From Nostoc sp. PCC 7120 = FACHB-418 (GTDB lineage: Bacteria > Cyanobacteriota > Cyanobacteriia > Cyanobacteriales > Nostocaceae): a DNA stretch of 32,000 nt. Position numbers and translations under genes: made by a program. The notes beneath the pieces are model-generated. The model worked only from the letters and a program-made list of their open reading frames with translations. It was not told the DNA's origin and did not search any database. Shown here piece by piece: positions 2,885 to 19,202 of this stretch; within the stretch, counting starts at the first letter, position 1, and every line of letters starts with the position of its first letter. The stretch covers positions 5,850,001 through 5,882,000 of the forward strand of contig NC_003272.1 in NCBI RefSeq assembly GCF_000009705.1, written 5' to 3'.

Positions 2885-2956
2885 AGCCAGCAGTCGGATT
2901 TGAACCGACGACCTTCCGATTACAAGTCGGATGCACTACCACTGTGCTATGCTGGC
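2885..2956 (-). tRNA. trnT: tRNA-Thr (anticodon UGU)
   Basis: The reverse complement folds as a 72-nt cloverleaf. Acceptor GCCAGCA/TGCTGGC, D arm GCAC-AGTGGTA-GTGC, anticodon arm TCCGA-CTTGTAA-TCGGA, 5-nt variable loop, T arm GTCGG-TTCAAAT-CCGAC, discriminator U. CCA is not encoded. Confidence 0.93.
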
Positions 2957-4261: not shown

Positions 4262-4275
4262 AGTACTAATGTTCT
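4262..4275 (+). promoter_or_regulatory. cyanobacterial LexA box upstream of lexA
   Basis: AGTACTAATGTTCT fits the Anabaena-type LexA consensus RGTACNNNDGTWCB at every position. It lies 34 nt upstream of the lexA ATG. Confidence 0.7.
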
Positions 4276-4308: not shown

Positions 4309-4914
4309 ATGGAACGCCTAACAGAAGCGCAACAAGAACTTTATGAATGGCTGGCAGAATATATCCGTATTCACCAGCATTCGCCCTCAATTCGTCAGAT
4401 GATGCAGGCGATGAATTTAAAATCACCTGCACCTATCCAAAGTCGTTTAGAACATTTACGCACGAAAGGATACATTGAATGGACTGAAGGTAAAGCCCGA
4501 ACAATTCGAGTTTTACAACCTATTAAGCAAGGTGTGCCGGTTTTGGGAGCGATCGCCGCAGGTGGTTTAATAGAACCATTCACTGATGCTGTCGAGCATA
4601 TCGACTTTTCTAATTTCGTTTTACCTGCTCAAACTTATGCTTTGCGGGTAACTGGTGACAGCATGATTGAAGATTTAATTACCGATGGGGATTTGGTATT
4701 TTTGCGCCCAGTTCCCGAACCAGATCAATTAAAAAATGGTACTATCGTCGCTGCCAGAGTGGATGGTTATGGTAATACATTAAAACGTTTTTATCGAAGT
4801 GGCGATCGCATCACTCTTAAACCAGCCAACCCCAAATATAACCCCATTGAAGTTGCAGCCATACAGGTAGAGGTGCAAGGTTCTCTGGTTGGTGTGTGGC
4901 GCGGTTATATGTGA
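4309..4914 (+). CDS. lexA: LexA repressor (S24 peptidase)
   Basis: 201-aa ORF with an N-terminal winged HTH, an Ala-Gly cleavage region AIAAGG, catalytic Ser in VTGDSM, and Lys in NTLKRF. Confidence 0.9.
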   Translation: MERLTEAQQELYEWLAEYIRIHQHSPSIRQMMQAMNLKSPAPIQSRLEHLRTKGYIEWTEGKARTIRVLQPIKQGVPVLGAIAAGGLIEPFTDAVEHIDFSNFVLPAQTYALRVTGDSMIEDLITDGDLVFLRPVPEPDQLKNGTIVAARVDGYGNTLKRFYRSGDRITLKPANPKYNPIEVAAIQVEVQGSLVGVWRGYM

Positions 4915-5003
4915 ATGACTGGAGACTGGGGGGAGATGGGGAAGAATTTCACCTACCTTGTTTCCCTCATCCTTCTCATCTTGTCAATGTTCAATCCCTA
5001 GAA

Positions 5004-5027
5004 ATTTTGAATTTTGAATTTTGAATT
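5004..5027 (+). repeat. heptamer tandem repeat (ATTTTGA x3.4)
   Basis: ATTTTGA occurs at 5004-5010, 5011-5017 and 5018-5024, plus a partial ATT. It sits immediately upstream of the ATG at 5034. This is the STRR-style heptamer repeat class common in heterocystous cyanobacteria. Confidence 0.8.
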
Positions 5028-5033
5028 GGTATT

Positions 5034-6512
5034 ATGTACCTGAAGCAAGCACCAGTGCAGCAATTTCCTGCTTTCCGGCTCAAATTACCATTTGTCAGGG
5101 AAAGTCAAGGTAGTTATCAGACTCAGCCATTACCAGGGTGTCCTAGAATGCCGTTATCTGTGCAGTTGCGCCAGTATCAGCGTCAAGCTATGACTAACTG
5201 GTTTGCGAACAATGGCCGAGGAACGCTGAAGATGGCGACTGGTAGCGGGAAAACTATAACTGCACTGGCGATTACTTGCGAGTTATACCAGCAGATTAGC
5301 TTACAGGTGTTGTTGGTGGTGTGTCCCTATCGTCATTTGGTGACACAATGGGCGCGAGAATGCGAGAAGTTTAATTTACAACCGATATTAGCCTTTGAGA
5401 ATTTACGCAGTTGGCAAAGTCAACTTTCTACCCAACTTTACAATCTGCGTTCTGGTTCTCAAGGCTTTGTGACTGTGATTACTACCAATTCCACGTTAAT
5501 TGGGGATGGGTTCCAGTCACAACTCAAGTATTTTCCGGCTAAGACTTTAATTATTGGTGATGAAGCCCATAATTTAGGCGCACCTAAGTTAGAGGAAAGT
5601 TTACCCCGGCGGGTGGGTTTGCGACTGGCTTTATCGGCGACACCAGAAAGATATTTTGATGATGGTGGTACGCAATCTTTATTTGATTACTTCGGCCCAG
5701 TTTTACAACCAGAGTTTACTTTACGGGATGCGATCGCTCAAGGTGCTTTGGTGCATTATCTATATTATCCCATCTTAGTAGAGTTAACTGAGGCTGAAAG
5801 TATTGCTTACTTGAAACTAACTAAACGCATCGGGCGATCGCTATTATATAGAGAACGGAATAATGGCGAATCACCTAATTTTGAAGACAACGAAGATTTA
5901 AAGCCTTTATTAATGCAACGCGCTAGATTAATTGGTGCAGCAGCAAATAAACTCAAAGCTTTACGTCAATTAATGGCTACTCGCCGGGAAACCACTCACA
6001 CACTTTTTTATTGTAGTGATGGTTCATTAGAAACAGGACAGCGTTCATCACTCCATCAACTCAAAACTGTGGCGAAAATTCTGGGCGGAGAATTAGGGTA
6101 TAAGGTAAGTACATACACAGCGCAAACATCTTTACAAGAAAGAGAAGTTTTACGTCGTCAATTTGAAAGTGGCGCATTACAAGGTTTGGTGGCAATTCGC
6201 TGTTTAGATGAAGGGGTGGATATTCCGGCAATTCAAACTGCCGTGATTTTATCAAGTTCTGGTAATCCTCGTCAGTTTATTCAGCGACGGGGTAGGGTTT
6301 TACGTCCTCATCCTAGTAAGGAAAGGGCGACTATCTACGACATGATTGTTTTACCACCAGATTTGGATAGGGAAACCATAGAAGTTGAACGCAATTTGTT
6401 AAGAAAAGAGTTGCGGCGCTTTGTGGAGTTTGCCGATTTAGCTGATAATGCTGGAGAAGCTCGCATCAAGTTGCTGGATTTACAAAAGCGATATGGGTTA
6501 TTGGATGTTTAG
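5034..6512 (+). CDS. SF2 helicase/translocase, type III restriction res-subunit-like (candidate dnd-linked restriction helicase)
   Basis: 492-aa ORF. Motif I ATGSGKT, motif II DEAH (IIGDEAHNLG), motif III SATPER, motif VI QFIQRRGRVLR. No nuclease domain is visible. The start could instead be the internal Met (MPLSVQLRQYQ). Confidence 0.85.
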   Translation: MYLKQAPVQQFPAFRLKLPFVRESQGSYQTQPLPGCPRMPLSVQLRQYQRQAMTNWFANNGRGTLKMATGSGKTITALAITCELYQQISLQVLLVVCPYRHLVTQWARECEKFNLQPILAFENLRSWQSQLSTQLYNLRSGSQGFVTVITTNSTLIGDGFQSQLKYFPAKTLIIGDEAHNLGAPKLEESLPRRVGLRLALSATPERYFDDGGTQSLFDYFGPVLQPEFTLRDAIAQGALVHYLYYPILVELTEAESIAYLKLTKRIGRSLLYRERNNGESPNFEDNEDLKPLLMQRARLIGAAANKLKALRQLMATRRETTHTLFYCSDGSLETGQRSSLHQLKTVAKILGGELGYKVSTYTAQTSLQEREVLRRQFESGALQGLVAIRCLDEGVDIPAIQTAVILSSSGNPRQFIQRRGRVLRPHPSKERATIYDMIVLPPDLDRETIEVERNLLRKELRRFVEFADLADNAGEARIKLLDLQKRYGLLDV

Positions 6513-6833
6513 TCATTACTCATTCTTCTATTGTTAATTTTGTAAAATTTTGTTCACTGGCTGAAAATATTTGTAGTCAATATGCGAGAATAATATTGAT
6601 TATAATGGAATGTGAGTGAAATTTTTAAAACGACAAAAAATCCATCATGATCAATATTGAATTTATGTAATTAAGTATATCAGTAAACAGCACGGAAATA
6701 CGGTCATTTTTATCAAAAACATTTAAAATCTTCCGAGCATAATCCGCCTAAATTAAAGATAAGAGTAATAGTGGCTTTACTGAGGTGAAATCAACGATGC
6801 AGGGGGCTAAAATAAAGCATAACCTATTGCCCA

Positions 6834-7013
6834 ATGAAGATGTCTCAAGAGCAAAATATTGATGATGTTCAGGAGCCAATTATTAATGCACCGCCGGAGG
6901 TACGGCAAATTATTGAACGGGTATGGCATTTGGAAAAAAACAGACTAGATAAAAAAAGCAATAGCCCAATCAATGATGATATTTTGACAATTGTGAAGGA
7001 AGCGGTGCAATGA
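6834..7013 (+). CDS. 59-aa hypothetical protein, translationally coupled to the downstream ATPase
   Basis: This ORF is below the track cutoff. Translation: MKMSQEQNIDDVQEPIINAPPEVRQIIERVWHLEKNRLDKKSNSPINDDILTIVKEAVQ. Its TGA (7011-7013) overlaps the ATG (7010-7012) of the next gene as ATGA. No family recognised. Confidence 0.45.
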   Translation: MKMSQEQNIDDVQEPIINAPPEVRQIIERVWHLEKNRLDKKSNSPINDDILTIVKEAVQ

Positions 7014-9082
7014 AGCTGACTTCAATTAAACTATGCAATTTTCGCTCTTTTTATGGCAGAACACCGGAGATAGTTATCGCTGGGGGAGATGTTCTCAACA
7101 CTACGATAATTCATGGGAATAATGGCTCAGGTAAAACTAGTTTACTTAATGCCTTTACGTGGGTATTATATGAGAAGTTTAGTGCAGCTTTTGCCTCGAT
7201 AGAACAACTAGTTAATAAACGAGCGATCGCCGAAGCTAAACTTGGACAAGCTGTAGAATGTTGGGTAGAGATTAACTGGGAACACGAAGGTAAACGCTAC
7301 AACGTCAAACGCCAGTGTAAAGGCTATAAAAATAAAACCGACTTTGCCATAGGTAAAACAGAATTACTCATGCAGGTAGCTGGGGATGATGGTAGATGGT
7401 ATTACCCAAGCCAGCAACCAGAAGAAATCATTGGGCAGATTTTACCAGTTAGTTTACATCAATACTTTTTCTTTGACGGCGAACGCATAGAAGAAATCGT
7501 GCGTTCTGATAAAAAAGCGGAAATTGCTGAAGCTACTAAAATCTTTTTGGGTGTGGAAGTAATTAACCGTTCTATCAGACATTTGGGTGAAGCTAAAAAA
7601 AGTTTAGAAAATGAGTTAAAAGCAATTGGGGATTCCGAGATTAAGCAGCTTTTGCGTGAACAAGAGAAACTAGAACAAGAGATTGAACGCATTCACACCA
7701 GACAAACAGAAATTAAGCAAGAATTAGAATATCAGCAAACCTTTAAGAAAGAAACAGGTAACCGTTTACAAGAACTGAGTGCTGCTAAGGAATTGCAACA
7801 GAGACGACAAGAATTAGAAAATCAAAAAAACTCAAATCAAGAAAGCCTCAGACAAACTAGAGAAGCACTAAAAAAGATTATTTCCGCACGGGGTTACACA
7901 GTATTATTGTCAGATACTACAGCCCAATTTCGGACGATCATCAATCAACTTAAGCAACAAGGTGAATTAACTGCGGGAATTTCGCGGGAATTTATTCATG
8001 AATTATTAAAATCCCAACGCTGTATTTGTGGTGCAGACTTACATGAAGGTAATCATGCTCACACAAATGTGAGTCTCTGGTTAAATCAAGCAGGTTCCTC
8101 GGCTGTAGAAGAAACAGCAATTCGTATGAGCGCCCAAGTAGACGAAATCGATAAGCAAGCGATCGCATTTTGGGAAGAAGTTGATAAGGAACAAGCGAGA
8201 ATCAATCAGTTACGTCAAAATATATCTCAAGTTGAAAATGAATTAGAAACTATTCAAGAACGCTTACGCAAAGACGCTAACGAAGAAATTAGCAGTTTAC
8301 AAAAGCGGTTAGATGAGATTGAAAGTAAAATTGATGAATTAAATAGAGAACAAGGTGCAAATCAGCAAGAAATTTCTCATGTACAGGCTGATATTGATGC
8401 TTTAGTTAAACAAATTGCTAAACAAAAGCTCAATGAAGAAAAGCAGTTATTAGCTCAAAGACGGATTAACGCCACACAAGACGCAATTGAACGCTTAACA
8501 GAAGTCAGAAATCGGCAAGAAAATCAGTTTCGACTGCAATTAGAAAAGCGCTTGCAAGAGATATTTAACTCCGTATCTTTTACGCCTTATGTACCTAAAA
8601 TTAGCGATAAATATGAGTTAACTCTGGTAGAAAGTACATCAGGGATGGAAGCATCAGTTGCAGCCTCTACTGGTGAAAACCAAATTCTCAGTTTATCTTT
8701 TATTGCCAGTATTATTGATAAAGTCAGAGACTGGAGCGAAAAACGCAAAATCTTAACGGTACCTGATAGCAGTACTTTTCCCATCGTCATGGACTCACCA
8801 TTTGGGAGTTTAGATGAAACCTATCGTCGGCGCATTGCTCAAACATTACCTGAGTTGGCTAATCAGTTGATAGTGTTAGTAACAAAAACTCAATGGCGGG
8901 GAGAAGTGGAAACAGAGATGACAGATAGAATTGGTAGGGAATACGTGCTGACTTACTACTCTTCTAAGCCAGATTGTGAACAAGATTATATTGAATTGAG
9001 TGGGGGAAGATTTCCTTTGGTGAAACAAAGCCCGAATGAGTTTGAATATACTGAGGTGATAGTGGTAGAGAGGGAGTGGTGA
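7010..9082 (+). CDS. DndD-family SMC-like ABC ATPase (second paralogue, outside dndCDE)
   Basis: 690 aa. Walker A GNNGSGKT, FFFDGERIEE (compare FLFDGEQVKE in the canonical DndD here), and a long coiled coil with C338-I-C340-G at mid-length. Signature-like STGENQILSLSF and Walker B/D-loop IVMDSPFGSLD align with the DndD motifs LSAGEKQLLAIAF and VAIDTPLGRLD. Confidence 0.85.
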   Translation: MKLTSIKLCNFRSFYGRTPEIVIAGGDVLNTTIIHGNNGSGKTSLLNAFTWVLYEKFSAAFASIEQLVNKRAIAEAKLGQAVECWVEINWEHEGKRYNVKRQCKGYKNKTDFAIGKTELLMQVAGDDGRWYYPSQQPEEIIGQILPVSLHQYFFFDGERIEEIVRSDKKAEIAEATKIFLGVEVINRSIRHLGEAKKSLENELKAIGDSEIKQLLREQEKLEQEIERIHTRQTEIKQELEYQQTFKKETGNRLQELSAAKELQQRRQELENQKNSNQESLRQTREALKKIISARGYTVLLSDTTAQFRTIINQLKQQGELTAGISREFIHELLKSQRCICGADLHEGNHAHTNVSLWLNQAGSSAVEETAIRMSAQVDEIDKQAIAFWEEVDKEQARINQLRQNISQVENELETIQERLRKDANEEISSLQKRLDEIESKIDELNREQGANQQEISHVQADIDALVKQIAKQKLNEEKQLLAQRRINATQDAIERLTEVRNRQENQFRLQLEKRLQEIFNSVSFTPYVPKISDKYELTLVESTSGMEASVAASTGENQILSLSFIASIIDKVRDWSEKRKILTVPDSSTFPIVMDSPFGSLDETYRRRIAQTLPELANQLIVLVTKTQWRGEVETEMTDRIGREYVLTYYSSKPDCEQDYIELSGGRFPLVKQSPNEFEYTEVIVVEREW

Positions 9083-9209
9083 TATTCAGCACAATTTTGA
9101 GAGGTTATTTATAGCGATTCTTCGTGAAGATGGGTGCATAATTATTGTTTTTAAACGCGGAGGAGCGCGGAGAGTTTTTATTAGTGCATTTGAAAAAAAG
9201 GAGTTGGTT

Positions 9210-9776
9210 ATGGTTGCAAGTCCAGACCGGAATTATATGTCTCCTCAAGAATATCTGGAATGGGAAGAACGCCAAGATATTAAATATGAGTATGTCAATG
9301 GTGAAGTTTTCGCCATGACTGGGGGAACTCTTCCTCACACTACTATTGCTTTAAACTTAGCCTCAGCATTAAAAAGCCATGTACGCGGTGGTTCCTGTCG
9401 TGCTTTTATGTCTGACGCGAAAGTAGCAGTATCTGAGGGTATGTCGTTTCATTACCCTGATGTTGTTGTGAGTTGTGATGAAAGAGATAAACAAGCCACT
9501 AAATTTCTTCAGTATCCTTGTCTAATTGTCGAAGTTTTATCTCCAAGTACGGAAGCTTACGACCGAGGTGCTAAATTTAAGCAATATCGCCGCATTCAAA
9601 CCTTAAAAGAATACGTCCTAATTGATGCAGAAAAAATCAATTTAGATTGTTTTCGATTAAATGAAAATGGTATTTGGGAGTTGTATTCTTACGAAGAGGG
9701 AAATGAGGTTTATTTGCAGAGTGTTGATTTTCGCTTTCCCATATCTCTGGTTTATGAGGATGTATTTTTGGGTTAA
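9210..9776 (+). CDS. Uma2 family (DUF820) PD-(D/E)xK endonuclease
   Basis: The N-terminal SPQEYLEWEE...YEYVNGEV opening is typical of Uma2. Nuclease core is YPDVVV ... IVEVLSPST. I chose ATG 9210, which has AAGGAG 6 nt upstream, over the TTG at 9204 used in the track. Confidence 0.85.
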   Translation: MVASPDRNYMSPQEYLEWEERQDIKYEYVNGEVFAMTGGTLPHTTIALNLASALKSHVRGGSCRAFMSDAKVAVSEGMSFHYPDVVVSCDERDKQATKFLQYPCLIVEVLSPSTEAYDRGAKFKQYRRIQTLKEYVLIDAEKINLDCFRLNENGIWELYSYEEGNEVYLQSVDFRFPISLVYEDVFLG

Positions 9777-9841
9777 TTTTTACGCAGAAATGAGGAGAGA
9801 TTGTTAGATTAAAATTATCTGCACTTCTTATTAGGTGGTTG

Positions 9842-10393
9842 ATGAATATCAAAACTGAGGCGAATATTGAAGAATTGTACAGCTTACCTGACAATTGTAA
9901 AGCAGAAATTGTCAATGAAAAATTAGTGTTGATGTCTCCAACTGGATTTTTACCAGGACGTGCTGGGGGTGAAATTTATGCAAGTCTGCGGGACTATGAA
10001 CGTCTGACAAAAAGCGGTTACGCTTTGCCCGATAATGTTGGTTTCTTGATTAATCTTCCTCATCGACGTTCGTTAAGTCCTGATGCTGCGTTTTATCGTG
10101 GACAACCTACAGGCGGAAAGTTTCTGAATGGTGCGCCTGTGTTTGCGGTTGAAGTGAGAAGTGAAAATGATTATGGGGATAAAGCCGAGGAAGAAATGGC
10201 AAAAAAACGTCGTGATTATTTTGCGGCTGGTACTTTGGTAGTGTGGGACGTAGATGTACTCAAAGAGGAAGTGATTAGAGTGTATCGTGCTGACAACCCA
10301 GAACAAACGCAGGTTTATCATCGTGGTGAAGTAGCAGAAGCTGAACCTGCATTACCAGGATGGTTTATGCCAGTAGATAATTTGTTTATGTAG
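9842..10393 (+). CDS. Uma2 family (DUF820) PD-(D/E)xK endonuclease
   Basis: Core motifs SPDAAF ... FAVEVRSEND and an overall Uma2-like layout. I chose ATG 9842 over the TTG at 9839. Confidence 0.85.
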   Translation: MNIKTEANIEELYSLPDNCKAEIVNEKLVLMSPTGFLPGRAGGEIYASLRDYERLTKSGYALPDNVGFLINLPHRRSLSPDAAFYRGQPTGGKFLNGAPVFAVEVRSENDYGDKAEEEMAKKRRDYFAAGTLVVWDVDVLKEEVIRVYRADNPEQTQVYHRGEVAEAEPALPGWFMPVDNLFM

Positions 10394-10501
10394 ACTGTGT
10401 GGGCGTAGACGCAACCCATCGCTCTTTTACTTGGTATAAACATATAAGAGGTAACACGCGTACCCTTCGGTTAAAATAGCAACAAAGTAGATATTCAAGT
10501 C

Positions 10502-10972
10502 ATGGCTGCAAACAGAATCAGGGTTGCTAAAGATAAGGCTGAGTTGGTGAAATCGCTTTTAGCATCAAAAGACACAACCGGGCCTTTTCATACCTATGTA
10601 GAAGTTATGGTATTTGCAGCCGCATTGGGCGTTAAATATAAAAAGCGAGTTCCGCTTGGTGAAACGACTAAAAGGGAACCTTCCCCTATTCCCCAAGAAA
10701 ATTTTGCATCATTAGGACATGAGCTAATCATTAAATTATTAGCCGTCAATGAAACACATGATATAGAAATAATTTCTTCCAGAGAAGAAGAGTATGAAGA
10801 TAAACGTACCGAAATATTTGAAGAATATGCCAACGGAGGACTAGCAATATTAGAAAATGAATTACGTGGTTCCGTTGATTATTCAGAACGGATTCTCTTA
10901 TTTTTAATTTCCGAGAGAGATAATAAAGAAACATTAGAAGAAGAATTTGATTTAAGTAAATTCTTACCCTAA
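10502..10972 (+). CDS. hypothetical 156-aa protein with strongly acidic C-terminal half (possible dnd-associated small protein)
   Basis: Clean ATG ORF, 13 nt upstream of the HNH gene and on the same strand. The C-terminal half is rich in Glu/Asp (EEEYEDKRTEIFEEY, ETLEEEFD). Assignment to a dnd-associated family is only a recollection of such small families and is not verified. Confidence 0.6.
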   Translation: MAANRIRVAKDKAELVKSLLASKDTTGPFHTYVEVMVFAAALGVKYKKRVPLGETTKREPSPIPQENFASLGHELIIKLLAVNETHDIEIISSREEEYEDKRTEIFEEYANGGLAILENELRGSVDYSERILLFLISERDNKETLEEEFDLSKFLP

Positions 10973-10985
10973 TTCAAATTAATAT

Positions 10986-11927
10986 ATGAAAAATCTAGAT
11001 TATTATTGCCAGTCATTTTCTCAGTTAAATGTAAGTAGTACTCGCAAGCGTGGTAATGCTCAATATAAACCAATTTTAGTTTTAACGGTAATTGATTTGA
11101 TTACCCAAGGACTTATTACTGATAATCAAATTCGAGTTTCTGAAGAATTAATTCAAACATTTACTCGTTATTGGAGTATCTTAGGTTCTGAATCTTATAA
11201 AGGTGGTTTACACTATCCGTTCTTTCATTTACAGAGTGATGGGTTTTGGCACTTAGTATTTAAGCCCGAATTTAATGGATTACAACCAAAAACAACTAAT
11301 AAGCTGAAAGAAGCTGTTGAATATGCTTATCTTGATAAAGAACTATTCAATTTTTTACAAGATGAGTCTCCCAGACAAGAATTAATTGATGCACTGGTAA
11401 CAACGTTTTTTCAAGAACAACAGGATGAACTTGAAGAGATGTTACAAATTAATCAATCTTTTCAAGATGCTGACTTAGCTACAGAAACATCATCTGGCTC
11501 AATAAACTTAGACAATAATCCAAAATGGGGTTGTAGAAAAGCAATTATTAGAAATGCTTTTTTCCGAAAAACTATTGTTCGCGTTTATGACTACAAATGT
11601 GCATTTTGTGGTTTAAGAGTGACTAAAGCCATAAATCAAAATATTGTGGATGGCGCACACATCAAACCATTTGCACAATTCTATGACAGTAGAATCCATA
11701 ATGGTATTGCTCTTTGCAAAAATCACCACTGGGCTTTTGATCGTGGTTGGTTTACTGTGGATGAGCAGTATAAAATCATTGTTAGCAAAGAATTACAAGA
11801 AATATCCCCCCACAGTAAACCCATGAAAGATTTTCATGGCGAAAGACTACTCCTACCAAATCAGGAGCAATATTTACCAGAGTTAGAATCCCTGCAATGG
11901 CATCGCCAAAATGTATTTCAAGCGTAG
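10986..11927 (+). CDS. HNH_2-type endonuclease with unassigned ~190-aa N-terminal domain
   Basis: 313 aa. The C-terminal part reads CAFCG ... DGAHIKPF ... NGIALCKNHHWAFDRGWF, the HNH_2 pattern. The N-terminal part has RG-NAQ-YKPILVL and HYPFFHLQSDGFWHL motifs. Confidence 0.85.
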   Translation: MKNLDYYCQSFSQLNVSSTRKRGNAQYKPILVLTVIDLITQGLITDNQIRVSEELIQTFTRYWSILGSESYKGGLHYPFFHLQSDGFWHLVFKPEFNGLQPKTTNKLKEAVEYAYLDKELFNFLQDESPRQELIDALVTTFFQEQQDELEEMLQINQSFQDADLATETSSGSINLDNNPKWGCRKAIIRNAFFRKTIVRVYDYKCAFCGLRVTKAINQNIVDGAHIKPFAQFYDSRIHNGIALCKNHHWAFDRGWFTVDEQYKIIVSKELQEISPHSKPMKDFHGERLLLPNQEQYLPELESLQWHRQNVFQA

Positions 11928-13526
11928 TTACAAGACGGGCGGAAGCCCTACCTCCTTTGGTTCAACTAACTCACCATTAAACCCAATTGTTTTATTTTCT
12001 ACAGTCCTAGCATTAGCCAAAGCTTTACGAAGTTCAGCACGTTCCATAGAATCTTGAATTCCGCCAAGGATATAAATTAATAACTTCGTCGCCAATTCCT
12101 TTCCTGAAACCTGCACTCGCTTTTTATTAGGGTCATACAATACCCCATACCACAGAGATTGGGGGTATTCCATACCAGTAAAACCCCCTTGCTGGTCAAA
12201 CTTGCGTAACTTTTTAAAAATGCTGGCTACAGACAAACCTTTTTTAAAAACTAAAAATCCTAAAGCTTGCGCTAAAGCCACTTGTGCTACAGGACGAAAA
12301 AGTATATTTGCTTCACCACCGCCCTTTTCAAAACTGAAGCGTCTTAAAATAGGTGTATCTTCGTGTTCCAAAATCTTATAACTAGGTAAGCTTGCCAAGT
12401 TATCAAAGAGTTTGGTGAATTCTGCAATTCCCTCCTCAATTTCCTCATCTTCTGGACGCATAGGAATTAAACCTTTCTCAAAAGGTTTCCAGTGTGGGAA
12501 TTTTTGACCCAAGTATCTTTCTGACATATCTTGCAATGCTTGCAAAGTTGTCAAAACTGTGGAATTTGCTGCAACTGTTGCACTATTCCAATTAACGCGG
12601 GGGTTACGATTTGGTTTTTGTTCCAAAAGCGGATGAGTAACTGCAATTTTTCGCGCCACAATTGCAAAACCATCATCTTCGTTTAGCTGTGCTAACTGAC
12701 CTTTAGTTAACGGTGCAGCCATTAAGTTAACATGGACAAAAACTGACCTTACCCTTCGCCTTGCTTCGGTGCGAGTCTCCCCAGCATTCACCGCACAAAT
12801 GAACTCAATACCTATTTTTTCTTTGGGTAAACTTTGTAAATAATCAGGGTCTACTTGATACTGCTCTAGCAAATCTGACACCGTGATAAAACTATCATCA
12901 GCCGTTTTATCCTTTTTGTATCGCTGGAGTTTGCCAGTTTTGATTAACTCTATCAACCCCTGCACTCCCATTAATCGATGTTGTCCATCTAATGCGTAAA
13001 TGCTGACGTTATCCTCAGACACATTGAGCAAGCCGACCTTACCATCTTGATCCAGGGGTGTAAAATCAGTAGTAGACTTTCTCGCACATCCTTCACTATC
13101 CCACTCATCAGCTTTGTGCTTATCTACCCAAGACTGATTAATTACCACTAGGACTGGTGGAAACTTATGATTTTTTCTAGCTGCTAAATACTGAACAAGT
13201 GGCGCTTGACGTGACCAGTCAAGGGGACGCTGTTGGATTTCGTCAATACTATCCGCGTCAATTTCGACGTTATCAGTCTCTGCATTATACTTTTTTTGCA
13301 GCAGAGGTAGACCAGAGGCAAAGTGAACCCTACCTGCAAACCATTCCAGCGTGACAGACCCGATATAAGCCTCTATACCCCCCATCTCGGTTTTTTGAAC
13401 GAGAATTTGGTCTTCTTTCTGTAAAAACTTGTCCAAAAGTAAAGCTAGTACCTGTTTTTCCTTGTCTTCTCGCTCTAAGTAATCTCTAGCAATATCAGCA
13501 GTTGGGTCAGATGCGGTATCTCTCAT
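11928..13526 (-). CDS. dndB: DNA sulfur modification protein DndB (DGQHR domain)
   Basis: 532 aa. QQRPLDWSRQAPLVQYL, then the DGQHR motif at aa 180-184 (YALDGQHRLMG), then VHVNLMAAPLTKGQ. It seems longer than the DndB lengths I recall (from memory, not checked), with an extended C-terminus. Confidence 0.9.
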   Translation of the reverse strand: MRDTASDPTADIARDYLEREDKEKQVLALLLDKFLQKEDQILVQKTEMGGIEAYIGSVTLEWFAGRVHFASGLPLLQKKYNAETDNVEIDADSIDEIQQRPLDWSRQAPLVQYLAARKNHKFPPVLVVINQSWVDKHKADEWDSEGCARKSTTDFTPLDQDGKVGLLNVSEDNVSIYALDGQHRLMGVQGLIELIKTGKLQRYKKDKTADDSFITVSDLLEQYQVDPDYLQSLPKEKIGIEFICAVNAGETRTEARRRVRSVFVHVNLMAAPLTKGQLAQLNEDDGFAIVARKIAVTHPLLEQKPNRNPRVNWNSATVAANSTVLTTLQALQDMSERYLGQKFPHWKPFEKGLIPMRPEDEEIEEGIAEFTKLFDNLASLPSYKILEHEDTPILRRFSFEKGGGEANILFRPVAQVALAQALGFLVFKKGLSVASIFKKLRKFDQQGGFTGMEYPQSLWYGVLYDPNKKRVQVSGKELATKLLIYILGGIQDSMERAELRKALANARTVENKTIGFNGELVEPKEVGLPPVL

Positions 13527-13683: not shown

Positions 13684-15372
13684 ATGAGTACAACACAACA
13701 GCCAGAAAATAAAGGTCAGCAAAAACGTACTGTAGCAGAGTTAGTGGAGTATATCCAAGCTCTGACTACTGAAATTCAAGAATTGTATTGTTTAGATGCG
13801 ATACCTTGGGTTGTTGGTTATTCAGGTGGAAAAGACAGCACTGCTACTTTACAGCTCGTTTGGAATGCCATATCATCTCTACCGCCAGAAAGGCGGAACA
13901 AAACAATATACGTTATCACCACAGATACCCTAGTAGAGAATCCTATTGTTGCTACTTGGGTACGAAATTCTCTCAAAGAAATGACTGTGGCTGCTAAAAA
14001 ACAAGGAATGCCAGTTGAACCCCATTTACTACAGCCAGAGATAAAAGAAACTTTCTGGGTGAGCTTGATTGGTAAAGGTTATCCAGCGCCAAAAGGAAAA
14101 TTTCGTTGGTGTACAGACCGCCTAAAAATTCATCCCTCTAACCGATTTATTCGTGATGTAGTCAGAGCCAAAGGGGAAGTCATTCTTGTTTTAGGTACGC
14201 GCAAAAATGAAAGTGTAAAACGTGCTATCTCGATGGAAAAACATCAAGCAGGCAGTCTCAGGGAACGTCTCAATTCTAATTTAATTTCATCTAAATCCTT
14301 ACTATACAATAGCGCCAGCCTACCAAATTCTTTTATTTATAGTCCTCTAGAAGATTGGCGTACAGATGAAGTTTGGATTTATCTTAATCAGTGGCAAAAT
14401 CCTTGGGGTTACAACAATAAAGATTTATTTTCTATGTATAGAGGAGCAACAGCCGATAATGAATGCCCCTTAGTTGTTGATACTTCTACCCCTAGTTGTG
14501 GCGATTCTCGGTTTGGATGCTGGGTTTGTACAATTGTTAATAAAGATAAATCGATGGAGGCGATGATTCAGAATGATGAAGAAAAAGAATGGATGCAGCC
14601 TCTATTAGATATCCGTAATGAATTAGATAATGAGAATGACCAAGATAAAAGAGACTTTCGCCGTCTTCGCGGGGAGGTTCAACTAGTTGAGCGCCATAAG
14701 GATGGAGAAACTCGCGTTGAGCCAATTTATGGGCCTTATACTAAAGATTCGCGCGAATATTGGTTAAAACGATTATTAGAAGCACAAACCTACATTCGCC
14801 GCACAGCACCAGAAAATATGCGCGATATTACTTTGATATCTCTAGAAGAACTGAGCGAAATTCGCCGTATTTGGTTAGAAGAAAAACACGAATTTGATGA
14901 CAGCTTACCCCGCATTTATCAAGAGATAACTGGTGAAGAATTCAAAGACCCGCGTCCTGGTGCAGACCTGAGTTTACTAGGTAGCGATGAATGGTCTGTA
15001 TTAGAAGAAATCTGTGCAGGTGATGGTATGCACCTGGAACTGATGGCGAAACTTTTGGACACAGAACGCCAGTATCGGAAAATGTCTCGTCGTGTGGGAA
15101 TCTACGAAACTTTAGAAAAATGTTTTGCTACCAGTTCTCGTTCTAAGGATGAAGCAGTTAAAAATGCTCATTTAAAACGAGATTTGAAAACAGCAGTTGA
15201 ACAAGGTGATATTGAAAAAGTCAAGCAGTTAACTTTAGCAGACTTTAGCGCGCCTGATTTAATGACAAACGCACCTAATACACCAAGTGATGAAACCAGT
15301 ACCACAAAATCAGGTGCTAAGGCGAAAGCTTGGGCAAATAAGAAATTCAAAAATAAAGAGACAAAGCCTTAA
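13684..15372 (+). CDS. dndC: DNA phosphorothioation sulfurtransferase DndC (PAPS-reductase/PP-loop ATPase fold)
   Basis: 562 aa. PP-loop GYSGGKDST, KFRWCTDRLK, and the Cys cluster PSCGDSRFGCWVCT. The C-terminal tail is Lys-rich. Confidence 0.93.
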   Translation: MSTTQQPENKGQQKRTVAELVEYIQALTTEIQELYCLDAIPWVVGYSGGKDSTATLQLVWNAISSLPPERRNKTIYVITTDTLVENPIVATWVRNSLKEMTVAAKKQGMPVEPHLLQPEIKETFWVSLIGKGYPAPKGKFRWCTDRLKIHPSNRFIRDVVRAKGEVILVLGTRKNESVKRAISMEKHQAGSLRERLNSNLISSKSLLYNSASLPNSFIYSPLEDWRTDEVWIYLNQWQNPWGYNNKDLFSMYRGATADNECPLVVDTSTPSCGDSRFGCWVCTIVNKDKSMEAMIQNDEEKEWMQPLLDIRNELDNENDQDKRDFRRLRGEVQLVERHKDGETRVEPIYGPYTKDSREYWLKRLLEAQTYIRRTAPENMRDITLISLEELSEIRRIWLEEKHEFDDSLPRIYQEITGEEFKDPRPGADLSLLGSDEWSVLEEICAGDGMHLELMAKLLDTERQYRKMSRRVGIYETLEKCFATSSRSKDEAVKNAHLKRDLKTAVEQGDIEKVKQLTLADFSAPDLMTNAPNTPSDETSTTKSGAKAKAWANKKFKNKETKP

Positions 15373-16136: not shown

Positions 16137-18125
16137 ATGATATTTCTCGAACTCGTTCTACAAAACTTTGGCCCCTATTCTGGGAGACAAGTAATCAATC
16201 TTGACCCCAGAAGTGAAGACAATCCTCACCCAATTATTCTATTAGGGGGGATGAATGGAGGTGGAAAAACCACACTCATGGACTCTATCCGCCTGGCTTT
16301 ATATGGACAACGCGCCCAATGTTCTACCCGTGGCAATTTAAGTTATGGTGATTTCTTAACTCAATGCGTTAATAGTCAAGCTAATCCTACGGAAAAAACG
16401 CGGGTTGAATTGCTTTTTGAACATATTGAAGATGATAAACCGATAAAATATCGGATTGTGCGAACTTGGGAAAAAAACCCTAAAGATGGTAAGGATGCAC
16501 TAGGGATTTTAGGTGATGATGACACCTGGCCTGTGGATTCTCTGGTGAATATCTGGGATGACTATATAGAAAATCTTCTCCCTTTGGGTATTTCTAATTT
16601 ATTTTTATTTGATGGGGAACAAGTTAAAGAACTGGCAGAACAAGAGACACCACCACAAATTGTGATTGAAGCTATTCGTGGATTGTTGGGTTTAGAATTG
16701 GCGGACAGATTAGCTGTTGATTTAGAAATTTTGGTCAATCGCAAACGTAAGGAACTGGCTGAAACTAAAGATTTAGCTGAACTGGAAGAAATTGAGCAGA
16801 GGTTAAAATCACAGCAAGAAGATTATCAAGTTATAGAGGAAAAGTTAGTAACTTTTAAAAATGAAATTGAAGAGTTAGAAACTATACAGCGAGAAGCTTT
16901 AGATAAATTTGTTTCTGAAGGTGGTAAGATTGCTGCCGAACGCAATCAGCTAGAACAACAACAAAAGGAAAAATCTAGCGCCGCCGAGAATATTAGACAG
17001 TCAATGTGTGAATTAGCGGCTGAGGTTTTACCTTTGGCGTTAATTCCTAATTTATTGAGTCAATTACAAACTCAGGGAGCAAAGGAATTTCGCTATCAAC
17101 AGATACAATTAGCTAGAGATGTTTTACTTGAGCGAGATAAACGCTTATTGCAATGGTTAAGTGAATTAGCAATTGGTTCTGAACAGGTAGATAAAATCCA
17201 ATCTTTTTTAGTGGAAGATGTGGATAATTTATATACAGGTTACGCCCAAGCAGAAGCACCTTGGTTATTAGCTGATGAAGAAAGTTTAAGTCAGTTAGAT
17301 AATACCAGATATTATTTACAAAATGCTCAAATTTTAGCCAGGCAGCAATTAACTAATCTCAAAAGTATAGAAGAAGAGTTGATTGTCTTAGCTAGACAGG
17401 TGCAGACAGCAGCAGAACCAGAAGCTTATCAAAAGCTACGCGAAACTGTAGAAGCAGCACAAAATCAAGTCGTTCAAGCTAAGGCTAATTTTGAAACAAC
17501 TCGTCGTATTTCATCAGAATTAGCAGACTCTATTGAACGAACAAAGAAGGAATTGAAAGAATATACTGATAAAAATATTGATACTAAAAATAGAGGACAC
17601 ATTATTACTTCAGCCGCTAAAGTTCAAGAAACACTGAAGGTTTTTCGGGAAAAATTAACTCTACGAAAACTCAACAAACTAGAGGAAGAAGTAAAAAATT
17701 GTTTCCTCTATCTACTGCATAAATCAGATTTAGTATATCGCCTGACTATTGATACTAAAACCTTTGCCTTATCTCTGTTTGATTTCAATGGTAAACCTGT
17801 TCCCAAACATCGCCTGTCAGCAGGGGAAAAACAACTACTAGCGATCGCCTTTCTCTGGGGATTAGCCAAAGTCTCTGGTCTGCGTTTACCTGTAGCTATC
17901 GATACACCCCTCGGTAGACTTGACTCCTCCCACCGCCAAAACCTAGTAGAAAAGTACTTTCCTGCCGCCAGCCATCAAGTAATTCGCCTATCTACCGATA
18001 CTGAAATCGGGAAAAAGGAAGTAGAAACACTAAGGAGTAATGAGGCGATCGCCCGTGAATATCTTTTAAAATATAATTCAGCTACTCGTCAAACAAAGAT
18101 AGTAGAAAATCAATATTTTTGGTAG
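16137..18125 (+). CDS. dndD: DNA sulfur modification protein DndD (SMC-like ATPase)
   Basis: N-terminus MIFLELVLQNFGPYSG, Walker A GGMNGGGKT, FLFDGEQVKEL, coiled coil, LSAGEKQLLAIAF, VAIDTPLGRLD. I chose ATG 16137 (662 aa) rather than the TTG at 16089 used in the track. Confidence 0.92.
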   Translation: MIFLELVLQNFGPYSGRQVINLDPRSEDNPHPIILLGGMNGGGKTTLMDSIRLALYGQRAQCSTRGNLSYGDFLTQCVNSQANPTEKTRVELLFEHIEDDKPIKYRIVRTWEKNPKDGKDALGILGDDDTWPVDSLVNIWDDYIENLLPLGISNLFLFDGEQVKELAEQETPPQIVIEAIRGLLGLELADRLAVDLEILVNRKRKELAETKDLAELEEIEQRLKSQQEDYQVIEEKLVTFKNEIEELETIQREALDKFVSEGGKIAAERNQLEQQQKEKSSAAENIRQSMCELAAEVLPLALIPNLLSQLQTQGAKEFRYQQIQLARDVLLERDKRLLQWLSELAIGSEQVDKIQSFLVEDVDNLYTGYAQAEAPWLLADEESLSQLDNTRYYLQNAQILARQQLTNLKSIEEELIVLARQVQTAAEPEAYQKLRETVEAAQNQVVQAKANFETTRRISSELADSIERTKKELKEYTDKNIDTKNRGHIITSAAKVQETLKVFREKLTLRKLNKLEEEVKNCFLYLLHKSDLVYRLTIDTKTFALSLFDFNGKPVPKHRLSAGEKQLLAIAFLWGLAKVSGLRLPVAIDTPLGRLDSSHRQNLVEKYFPAASHQVIRLSTDTEIGKKEVETLRSNEAIAREYLLKYNSATRQTKIVENQYFW

Positions 18126-18157: not shown

Positions 18158-18400
18158 ATGCTATCACCACATTTACAAGCTATAGAGCGTGATATACGTA
18201 CGCTGTCATTAGCAGAACTAGAATGGCTGTTAGAACGCATTACCAAGCAAGTGCAAACAAGGAAACAAACATCAGATAAATTTACTGATATGCAATATAT
18301 GAATGAACAACTAGCAGCAATGGCTAATGATTTGGAAGTGCAGACAGAAATTAGTTTGATTAATCACGAATTTAATTCTACAGAAATGGATGGTTTATAA
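18158..18400 (+). CDS. putative antitoxin (80 aa) paired with MazF-like toxin
   Basis: Small ORF ending 5 nt before the toxin start. The assignment rests on position and size, not on a recognised fold. Confidence 0.6.
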   Translation: MLSPHLQAIERDIRTLSLAELEWLLERITKQVQTRKQTSDKFTDMQYMNEQLAAMANDLEVQTEISLINHEFNSTEMDGL

Positions 18401-18405
18401 AAACT

Positions 18406-18753
18406 GTGAGCATCGAAAGAGGACAAATTTATTTTGTCAATCTTAATCCAGTACATGGTAGAGAACAGGCGGGAGCAAGACCTGTTTTAGTTTTATCTAC
18501 AGATGCTATCAATCAATTACCTTTAGTTATTACTGTAGTTGTAGGGACAAAAGGCACAAATATTAAGCGCGATTATCCAACTAATATTCGGGTTTCACCA
18601 AGTGACAGTGGGTTAGTTATAGAAACAGTATTCCTATGTTTTCAAATTCGTTCTTTAGACCCCAACCGCTTTCCCACTGACCCATCAGGTAAGCTTTCAG
18701 CATCCAAAATGCTGGAGGTTGAAACTGCTGTTCGCTACTGTTTGGGGTTATGA
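18406..18753 (+). CDS. mazF: type II toxin, MazF/PemK family mRNA interferase
   Basis: 115 aa, GTG start. The N-terminus ERGQIYFVNLNPVHGREQAGARPVLVLS is the hallmark PemK/MazF opening. Confidence 0.85.
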   Translation: MSIERGQIYFVNLNPVHGREQAGARPVLVLSTDAINQLPLVITVVVGTKGTNIKRDYPTNIRVSPSDSGLVIETVFLCFQIRSLDPNRFPTDPSGKLSASKMLEVETAVRYCLGL

Positions 18754-18800: not shown

Positions 18801-19202
18801 ATGGAATCGCCCATCGAAAGAATTAAACTCTCGCAAACTGCTAAAGACCAATTATTAAAACTCCGCCGCAATACTAAAATAGACCAATGGAATATCCTCT
18901 GTCGTTGGGCTTTTTGTCGTTCTCTCGCCGAAACCACTCCACCTTCCCCTGTCCCCATTCCCCAAGATAGCAACGTCGAAATGACATGGCGCGTTTTTGG
19001 CGGCGAAATCTCAGATGTTCTCCTCCTCGCCCTGAAGCAACGCTGTCATAATGATGGCTATTCCACAGATAAAGAAACTTTAGCAACCCAGTTCCGCCTA
19101 CATTTACATCGTGGTATCGGTTACTTAGCAGGCGACCCAAATATCAAGAAAATTGAAGACTTAATTGAGCTAGCAATCAAAGATAAAAATGATATGAGTT
19201 AG
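18801..19202 (+). CDS. dndE: DNA sulfur modification protein DndE
   Basis: 133 aa. IKLSQTAKDQLLKLRRNTKIDQWNILCRWAFCRSL matches the conserved DndE N-terminal pattern. It is the last gene of the dndD-side unit. Confidence 0.85.
   Translation: MESPIERIKLSQTAKDQLLKLRRNTKIDQWNILCRWAFCRSLAETTPPSPVPIPQDSNVEMTWRVFGGEISDVLLLALKQRCHNDGYSTDKETLATQFRLHLHRGIGYLAGDPNIKKIEDLIELAIKDKNDMS

Follow-up and report, generated by a model that had tools for sequence, protein, structure and literature searches.

Why should a cyanobacterial chromosome that encodes the DndD ATPase of a DNA phosphorothioation (PT) locus carry a second, distantly related ATPase nearby, and why does a very small open reading frame (ORF) lead directly into its start codon? 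The question is raised by a stretch of 32,000 nucleotides of Nostoc sp. PCC 7120 (NC_003272.1, positions 5,850,001 to 5,882,000), referred to below, at its full length, as the window. Two adjoining genes on its forward strand, pbeB (6840-7013) and pbeC (7010-9082), are very probably the central pair of a PbeABCD (CxC-ABC-ATPase) module that lies beside dndB-like, dndC, dndD and dndE genes in this Nostoc/Anabaena chromosome. The pair is the PbeB and PbeC already described for PbeABCD, and its recognition is a rediscovery and not the discovery of a new system. Publications of 2019-2024 had already described the zinc-hook ATPase with its CxC, the small protein encoded just before it and the part that both play in defence beside dnd genes, and the PADLOC and NCBIfam models already include them.

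The family assignment follows from the PADLOC matches to PbeC and PbeA, from the TIGR04095 and TIGR04062 matches of the flanking genes and from a DndD score below cut-off. The product of pbeC, an ABC ATPase of 690 amino acids (aa), is matched by the PADLOC model PDLC02753 (PbeC) at 1179 bits. Upstream, pbeA (5034-6512, forward strand) encodes a 492-aa SF2 (ResIII/DEAD) helicase with the Pfam domains ResIII and Helicase_C. It is recognised by TIGR04095 (dnd_restrict_1, 'DNA phosphorothioation system restriction enzyme') at 661 bits against a cut-off of 600, and by the PADLOC PbeA model at 540.8 bits over just positions 241-681 of its 682. Downstream, pbeD (10502-10972, forward strand) encodes a 156-aa 'DNA phosphorothioation-associated protein 4' that scores 204 bits against TIGR04062, for which the cut-off is 74.

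The first-pass annotation had described the protein encoded at 7010 as a second DndD-family ATPase, homologous to the one encoded at 16137-18125 (dndD, forward strand) and diverged from it. The homology is borne out: it extends over the full length at 24% identity (BLASTP, E=1e-19), and the pairwise alignment retains in both proteins the Walker A motif (GNNGSGKTS, residues 36-44 of PbeC), FFFDGE (153-158), the signature-like STGENQ (553-558) and the Walker B/D-loop IVMDSPFGSLD (592-602). The family label stands insofar as PbeC is a diverged relative of DndD from a sister clade, and fails insofar as it would make PbeC a DndD equivalog. Against TIGR03185, the DndD equivalog model, the 7010 protein reaches 157.7 bits, under the cut-off of 245.85, whereas the 16137 protein reaches 816.9. 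Given this score, and with PbeA and PbeB rather than DndC as its neighbours, a DndD equivalog was rejected.

The same separation emerges from phylogeny, a check that had been proposed at the outset. Scanning metagenome contigs with an alignment of the PbeC family gave 35 loci, and 24 ATPases from these loci and the window were placed in a neighbour-joining tree (Poisson-corrected distances, 200 bootstraps). ATPases bearing a Cys-x-Cys (CxC) motif part from those lacking it in 200/200 bootstraps; the 7010 protein groups with the former and the 16137 protein with the latter. This split agrees exactly with the gene neighbours: PbeA, a small ORF and PbeD accompany the CxC-bearing ATPases, and DndC and DndE the CxC-lacking ones. 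Among the metagenomic loci, the CxC-lacking ATPases have DndC upstream except in L102, where an unrelated 41-aa ORF alone precedes the ATPase, and in L101, where a 76-aa ORF intervenes before DndD; DndE lies downstream wherever a homologue was found. PbeC belongs to a sister clade of DndD whose hallmark is two invariant cysteines at the tip of the coiled coil.

These cysteines are encoded by the codons TGT-ATT-TGT at 8021-8029 of the forward strand (C338-I339-C340), and direct reading confirms these coordinates as well as those of the ATGA at 7010-7013, in which the start codon of pbeC overlaps the stop codon of pbeB. HMMER, run exhaustively against 1.84 billion cluster representatives (50%-identity clusters), returned 1083 relatives at E≤1e-30, and 134 full-length proteins from the best 150 of these, 28-50% identical to the query, were aligned with it. 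Both C338 and C340 are invariant (135/135), so that the conservation on which the first reading of the motif depended is complete in this alignment; I339 is kept in 125 of the 135 sequences and G341 in 108. In a separate alignment of 64 sequences, just 12 columns of the whole protein are invariant; both cysteines are among them, as are residues of Walker A, Walker B and the signature. The pairwise alignment places no cysteine of DndD opposite the motif, which is indeed confined to the 7010 ATPase of the two. Three histidines to which attention had also been drawn (H345, H349 and H351) are not conserved in the 135-sequence alignment.

Where the motif lies in the protein was predicted with an AlphaFold2 model computed from an alignment of relatives (mean pLDDT 90.3). 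The model comprises a head domain, ascending helices (182-316) and descending helices (364-522), with arms of ~135 and ~159 residues, which are predicted to meet at an apex of ~47 residues (317-363) made of a short helix and a hairpin. In the modelled fold of this ABC ATPase, an antiparallel coiled coil of ~340 residues interrupts the head, and the CxC is placed in the short hairpin between the two arms, an apical position taken from the secondary-structure string of the model. In the zinc hook of Rad50, a zinc ion is shared between two chains that contribute a CxxC motif. Since the nearby histidines of PbeC are not conserved, each chain would contribute two fixed ligands, as expected of a site formed between molecules, and a metal site shared by two PbeC chains appears to be the natural reading of the CxC. 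The Rad50-like hook position suggested in the first-pass annotation is thereby supported by the model, and it agrees with passages of PMC10853773, citing Krishnan et al. 2020, in which PbeC, termed a "CxC ABC ATPase", has a Zn hook at its apex.

A Foldseek search of the Protein Data Bank (PDB) with the PbeC model ranks Rad50 first (E=5e-18), followed by MukB, JetC, Lamassu and SMC; it found no solved structure of the DndD/PbeC family. The likeness to Rad50 is one of fold only. The Rad50 and SbcC models give the 7010 protein merely 36-47 bits, with cut-offs of 478-1087, its motif reads C-I-C and not CxxC, and its neighbours are a helicase, Uma2, PbeD and HNH genes; the identification as Rad50/SbcC was rejected. 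An SMC protein was set aside as well, the model having no hinge-type apex domain and arms of ~135 and ~159 residues as opposed to the 800-1000 residues of coiled coil in SMC.

The small ORF proved to be as constrained as its larger neighbour. It had been presented as an unannotated ORF of 59 aa whose stop is shared with the ATPase start, and the ORF and its overlap are real; its conserved start, however, is the ATG at 6840, which gives 57 aa. The ATG at 6834, where the 59-aa version begins, is not conserved and is missing even from the locus of Nostoc parmelioides (L001), which is 99% identical to the window over the region. Nor was the ORF unannotated, for the exact 59-aa and 57-aa forms of its product are already public as 'hypothetical protein' (BAB76609.1/WP_010999036.1 and ABA21820.1). 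The PbeB peptide begins MSQEQNIDDVQEPIINAPPEVR.

Its conservation was followed in a comparison set of 80 Nostocales loci (L001-L080) with PbeC identities of 80-99%. The small ORF and the same ATGA overlap are found in 80/80, with 57 codons in 78 loci and 62 in the other 2, which settles the check proposed earlier on the micro-ORF and its overlap in favour of both. The set amounts to 81 DNA sequences, all distinct, that code for 61 distinct proteins. Measured against the window sequence, the median ratio of nonsynonymous to synonymous change (dN/dS) of pbeB is 0.15 in frame, against 1.0 and 1.6 when the two alternative frames are read, and the same comparison gives 0.09 for PbeC. The variable columns of pbeB number 30, 24 and 54 at codon positions 1, 2 and 3. 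By these sequence comparisons, the small ORF is a protein under selection.

The two ends of pbeB do not evolve alike. Codons 1-49 have a dN/dS of 0.10 and a synonymous divergence (dS) of 1.15; in codons 50-57, dS drops about five-fold (0.22 vs 1.15) and the motif AAGGAAG/AAGGAGG is kept across the 80 loci. A pbeC ribosome-binding site embedded in these codons predicts exactly that combination of low dS and kept motif, and a Shine-Dalgarno-like GAAGGAAG is found at 6995-7002 of the forward strand, within the final codons of pbeB. The pattern indicates that the 3' end of pbeB also serves as the translation-initiation region of pbeC and is constrained at the nucleotide level.

Outside the Nostocales, all 17 metagenomic CxC-type loci with a readable start region carry an ORF of 45-79 aa directly upstream of the ATPase, and the two overlap in 16 of the 17, by ATGA in 8 and by 10-29 nt in the rest. 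One locus, L096, has a broken ATPase frame and an unreadable CxC, and was counted as CxC-type from a phmmer match to PbeC and from the PbeA homologue beside it. When aligned, the small proteins share a variable tail followed by two helices, of which the first closes with a conserved Glu and is joined by a basic linker to the amphipathic second; in PbeB the variable N-terminal tail is acidic. Among 1447 ORFs searched with a PbeB profile made from close relatives, the small ORFs of L087 and L090 are recovered (E ~1e-3) with zero false hits. On a minor point, the constraint on PbeB (dN/dS 0.10) suggests that it acts as a two-helix subunit and not, as others have proposed, as a 'mostly disordered, rapidly evolving' decoy.

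The published function of the system agrees with what had been supposed here from the sequence. Under the name pbeABCD, it was reported to confer ~10^4-fold PT-dependent protection against the virus SNJ1 with no visible DNA cleavage (Xiong et al. 2019, PMC6459918). The PT-dependent block on the replication of viral DNA in Halogranum jeotgali requires each of the four Pbe proteins; deletion of any single pbe gene impaired protection, and deletion of the 66-aa PbeB abolished it (PMC6459918). The small, translationally coupled partner postulated in the first-pass annotation matches this PbeB, required for defence, and the role in PT sensing or DNA scanning that it preferred to one in modification matches the PT-dependent antiviral activity of PbeABCD (PMC6459918). 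Systems centred on DndD and on the CxC ATPase occur in tandem in 936 bacterial taxa, and the CxC motif is also present in systems with no dnd genes nearby (PMC10853773). According to the same study, PbeB is the small, fast-evolving and mostly disordered protein of the system, PbeD is a clade-2 DndE with two RHH repeats, and PbeA joins an HKD nuclease and an SF2 helicase in one fusion protein (PMC10853773).

Of this last architecture, the window PbeA has the helicase part and lacks the HKD part. The HKD domain is carried by 'the vast majority' of PbeA proteins (PMC10853773), a wording that makes it typical of PbeA and not obligatory. PbeA relatives from outside the Nostocales (L082, L086 and L089) are ~700 aa long and have an N-terminal PLDc_2 domain, and every Nostocales locus with its upstream flank present has a helicase-only PbeA with lexA directly upstream. 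The nuclease part of PbeA seems, from these sequences, to have been lost in the whole order. In the window, lexA (4309-4914, forward strand) ends ~120 nt 5' of pbeA. A perfect match to the cyanobacterial consensus of the LexA box, AGTACTAATGTTCT at 4262-4275, lies 34 nt 5' of lexA itself, and no perfect match was found before pbeA or pbeB. LexA control of the pbe genes was rejected on these grounds, and the conserved adjacency of lexA and pbeA does not look regulatory.

The operon is also looser than elsewhere. In Nostocales, a non-coding gap of 327 nt (6513-6839) separates pbeA from pbeB, whereas in other taxa the genes abut or overlap. The only promoter-like site in this gap, at 6785-6813, is weak, and such sites are no more frequent than in shuffled sequence; a scan of 4800-11100 for promoters and terminators likewise gave no more sites than shuffled sequence. 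In other taxa, loci that include the flanks have a PbeA homologue of ~700 aa upstream and, abutting or overlapping the stop of the ATPase gene, a homologue of PbeD; such PbeD homologues follow directly 3' of the CxC ATPases in L082, L086, L087, L088, L090, L092 and L095. In the window, two forward-strand genes of the Uma2 family ('putative restriction endonuclease') stand between pbeC and pbeD, at 9204-9776 and 9839-10393, with Pfam Uma2 matches at E=1.6e-43 and E=3.3e-26. Uma2 copies at this place vary from 0 to 2 across Nostocales, being absent from L030, L074 and L079, and in some loci the place is taken by unrelated genes, which span as much as 4.6 kb in L045. From this distribution, the Uma2 genes are best described as intervening cargo and not as core parts.

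The slot on the other side of pbeD, up to a 532-aa DGQHR/DndB-like gene (11928-13526, minus strand, TIGR03187), is interchangeable in Nostocales (the window compared with L015, L019, L021 and L031). It holds an HNH_2 endonuclease, a canonical 396-aa DndB, a pair of proteins of 665 and 227 aa, or a 577-aa protein with a different HNH. PbeD itself comes in two sequence types, of ~86% and ~63% identity to that of the window, which track the content of the slot. In the window, the slot is occupied by an HNH endonuclease gene (10986-11927, forward strand; Pfam HNH_2) that begins 13 nt past pbeD and matches NF045808, 'phosphorothioated DNA-binding restriction endonuclease', at 134.6 bits, under the cut-off of 180. 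As PbeA here lacks a nuclease, the product of this gene would be a candidate to supply one to the Pbe module.

Taken with the published work, these features outline how the module might operate. By analogy with Rad50, one Zn2+ bound by 2 + 2 cysteines could link two PbeC protomers at their tips or close them into a ring. A complex of this ATPase with the DNA-binding PbeD and the PbeA helicase would load on DNA and scan it in an ATP-dependent manner, sparing host DNA that bears the PT mark and stalling or attacking unmarked incoming DNA. PbeB, co-produced with PbeC by translational coupling, would be a bound subunit that gates or stabilises the ATPase.

Several points weigh against the assignment to PbeABCD or against this mechanism. 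The window PbeA is helicase-only, with no N-terminal HKD/PLD nuclease domain, and 1.4 kb with two Uma2 genes separates pbeC from pbeD; a module with an HKD-less PbeA and a displaced pbeD may work differently here, or not at all. The equivalence of the small ORF to the archaeal PbeB is drawn from position and size and not from detected sequence homology: the PbeB profile reaches no further than relatives whose PbeC is ~24-29% identical, and scans of Pfam, NCBIfam and PADLOC (to E=10) matched no PbeB family model, PADLOC appearing to have models neither for PbeB nor for PbeD. A comparison of PbeD with DndE by hhalign, using alignments from the loci, gave no signal (probability 0.05), and a profile search of PDB sequences with PbeD did not retrieve DndE. 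A PbeD model (pLDDT 69), made from a shallow alignment of database homologues of ≥66% identity, has the DndE crystal structures 5wtu and 4lrv as its sole compact Foldseek matches (TM 0.58-0.64, E ≥0.67), by which the DndE nature of PbeD is only hinted at. Finally, whether the system cleaves DNA or blocks replication is disputed between PMC6459918 and PMC10853773.

Four other explanations were weighed against this background. That the 7010 protein is a redundant second DndD acting in PT modification, where with the DndE-like PbeD it might add another sequence specificity, would accord with its full-length homology to DndD, with its position within 7 kb of dndC, dndD and dndE, and with the argument that cytosine methylases and other modification enzymes can be partnered with CxC-DndE pairs (PMC10853773). 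Its score is nevertheless below the DndD equivalog cut-off, DndC is never upstream of such an ATPase in the examined loci, PbeA and the small ORF taking that place, and neither a methylase nor a second sulfurtransferase adjoins it in the window; moreover, pbe deletion abolishes defence in H. jeotgali (PMC6459918). We regard this as very improbable. A redox-sensitive disulfide pair, or a set of ligands for a different cofactor (an Fe-S cluster, for example, or persulfide chemistry tied to the handling of sulfur), could instead account for the CxC, whose spacing differs from the CxxC of Rad50 and whose neighbours include sulfur-transfer enzymes. Such chemistry is unlikely, and a zinc hook favoured, on three grounds: the motif is predicted to cap the antiparallel coiled coil of a Rad50-like ATPase, just two invariant ligands are available per chain, as the geometry of a hook between molecules would have it, and the motif is also present where no dnd genes are nearby (PMC10853773).

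A greater share of credence, although still a minor one, goes to the proposal of the Aravind group in which PbeB, as a labile negative regulator that resembles an antitoxin or senses a viral trigger, restrains the complex until infection instead of being a constitutive stoichiometric subunit. Its published portrait as small, fast-evolving and mostly disordered (PMC10853773) points this way, and so do a sequence untraceable across the whole family and an acidic, variable N-terminal tail. Deletion of pbeB, however, abolished protection and unleashed no toxicity (PMC6459918), its constraint within Nostocales equals that of PbeC (dN/dS 0.10 vs 0.09), and a two-helix core conserved across distant loci is atypical of a disordered decoy. 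The helicase-only PbeA, the 327-nt gap between pbeA and pbeB and the 0-2 genes inserted between pbeC and pbeD could also mark the Nostocales module as a decaying remnant with no working defence. With four intact genes under purifying selection over 80 genomes at a dS of ~1.0-1.2, and with helicase and ATPase motifs intact, decay seems a poor account of the locus. A PbeABCD module in which PbeB is a constrained partner of PbeC is, in our view, the best explanation.

The Nostocales clade might, tentatively, be seen as a natural nuclease-less PbeABCD, with a bare-helicase PbeA, a loosened operon and interchangeable cargo after pbeD. Should such a form be functional, its core machine would defend without cutting, which would support the disputed model of replication block without cleavage; alternatively, a separately encoded HNH nuclease would have been recruited as a swappable effector. 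The residual interest of the locus lies in this HKD-less form and in its tractable host. Anabaena/Nostoc sp. PCC 7120 is a genetically tractable model cyanobacterium, suited to questions on the zinc of the CxC, on the role of PbeB and on the need for a nuclease, the last of which is sharpened by the natural loss of the HKD domain from PbeA.

Next to the module lies a set of PT modification genes. The dnd context that had been attributed to the 16137 ATPase is confirmed by matches to TIGR03183 for dndC (13684-15372, forward strand, 751 bits), to TIGR03185 for dndD and to TIGR03184 for dndE (18801-19202, forward strand, 140 bits). An insertion splits dndD from dndE: a toxin-type pair at 18158-18753, composed of an 80-aa ORF, presumably the antitoxin (18158-18400, forward strand), and of the MazF/PemK-type toxin gene that it precedes (18406-18753, forward strand). 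The C-terminal part of DndC (residues 438-480) weakly matches PF20306 ('Sp-DndD', a small protein of certain Dnd DNA modification systems) at 20.5 bits for a cut-off of 27.2, and in the metagenomic DndD locus L101 the free-standing 76-aa ORF, at 1473-1703, occupies a position equivalent to this C-terminal part. The DndD branch may, on these sequence hints, have its own small-protein counterpart to PbeB, fused here to DndC. A tRNA gene (2885-2956, minus strand; RF00005, 77 bits) was the only hit of an Rfam scan of the whole window.

Set beside known systems, the module most resembles PbeABCD, also called the 'CxC ABC ATPase-DndE' system. The order of helicase, small ORF, CxC ATPase and ~155-aa protein is the same, as are the invariant CxC at the coiled-coil apex and the adjoining dnd modification genes, and the sizes are close, with 57 aa here against 66 aa there for PbeB and 156 aa against 152 aa for PbeD. 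The differences are a PbeA without HKD/PLD, a pbeD displaced by two Uma2 genes and an HNH gene after pbeD; function was demonstrated in H. jeotgali, while the cyanobacterial members are known from sequence. DndD shares with PbeC an ABC head with FFFDGE, a coiled-coil insert of ~300-340 residues and a small DNA-binding protein as partner, but it lacks the CxC and has DndC before it and a canonical DndE after it.

Rad50/SbcC, the top structural match, likewise combines an antiparallel coiled coil with a two-cysteine apex motif that implies metal-bridged dimerisation. Its motif is CxxC where that of PbeC is CxC, the coiled coil of PbeC is far shorter, and in place of an Mre11/SbcD nuclease PbeC is accompanied by an SF2 helicase, a small protein and a DndE-like protein. 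Wadjet JetC and Lamassu LmuB, also among the structural matches, are like PbeC coiled-coil ABC ATPases of systems directed against invaders; they differ in their hinge or other apex domains, in their kleisin-type partners and in acting independently of host DNA modification.

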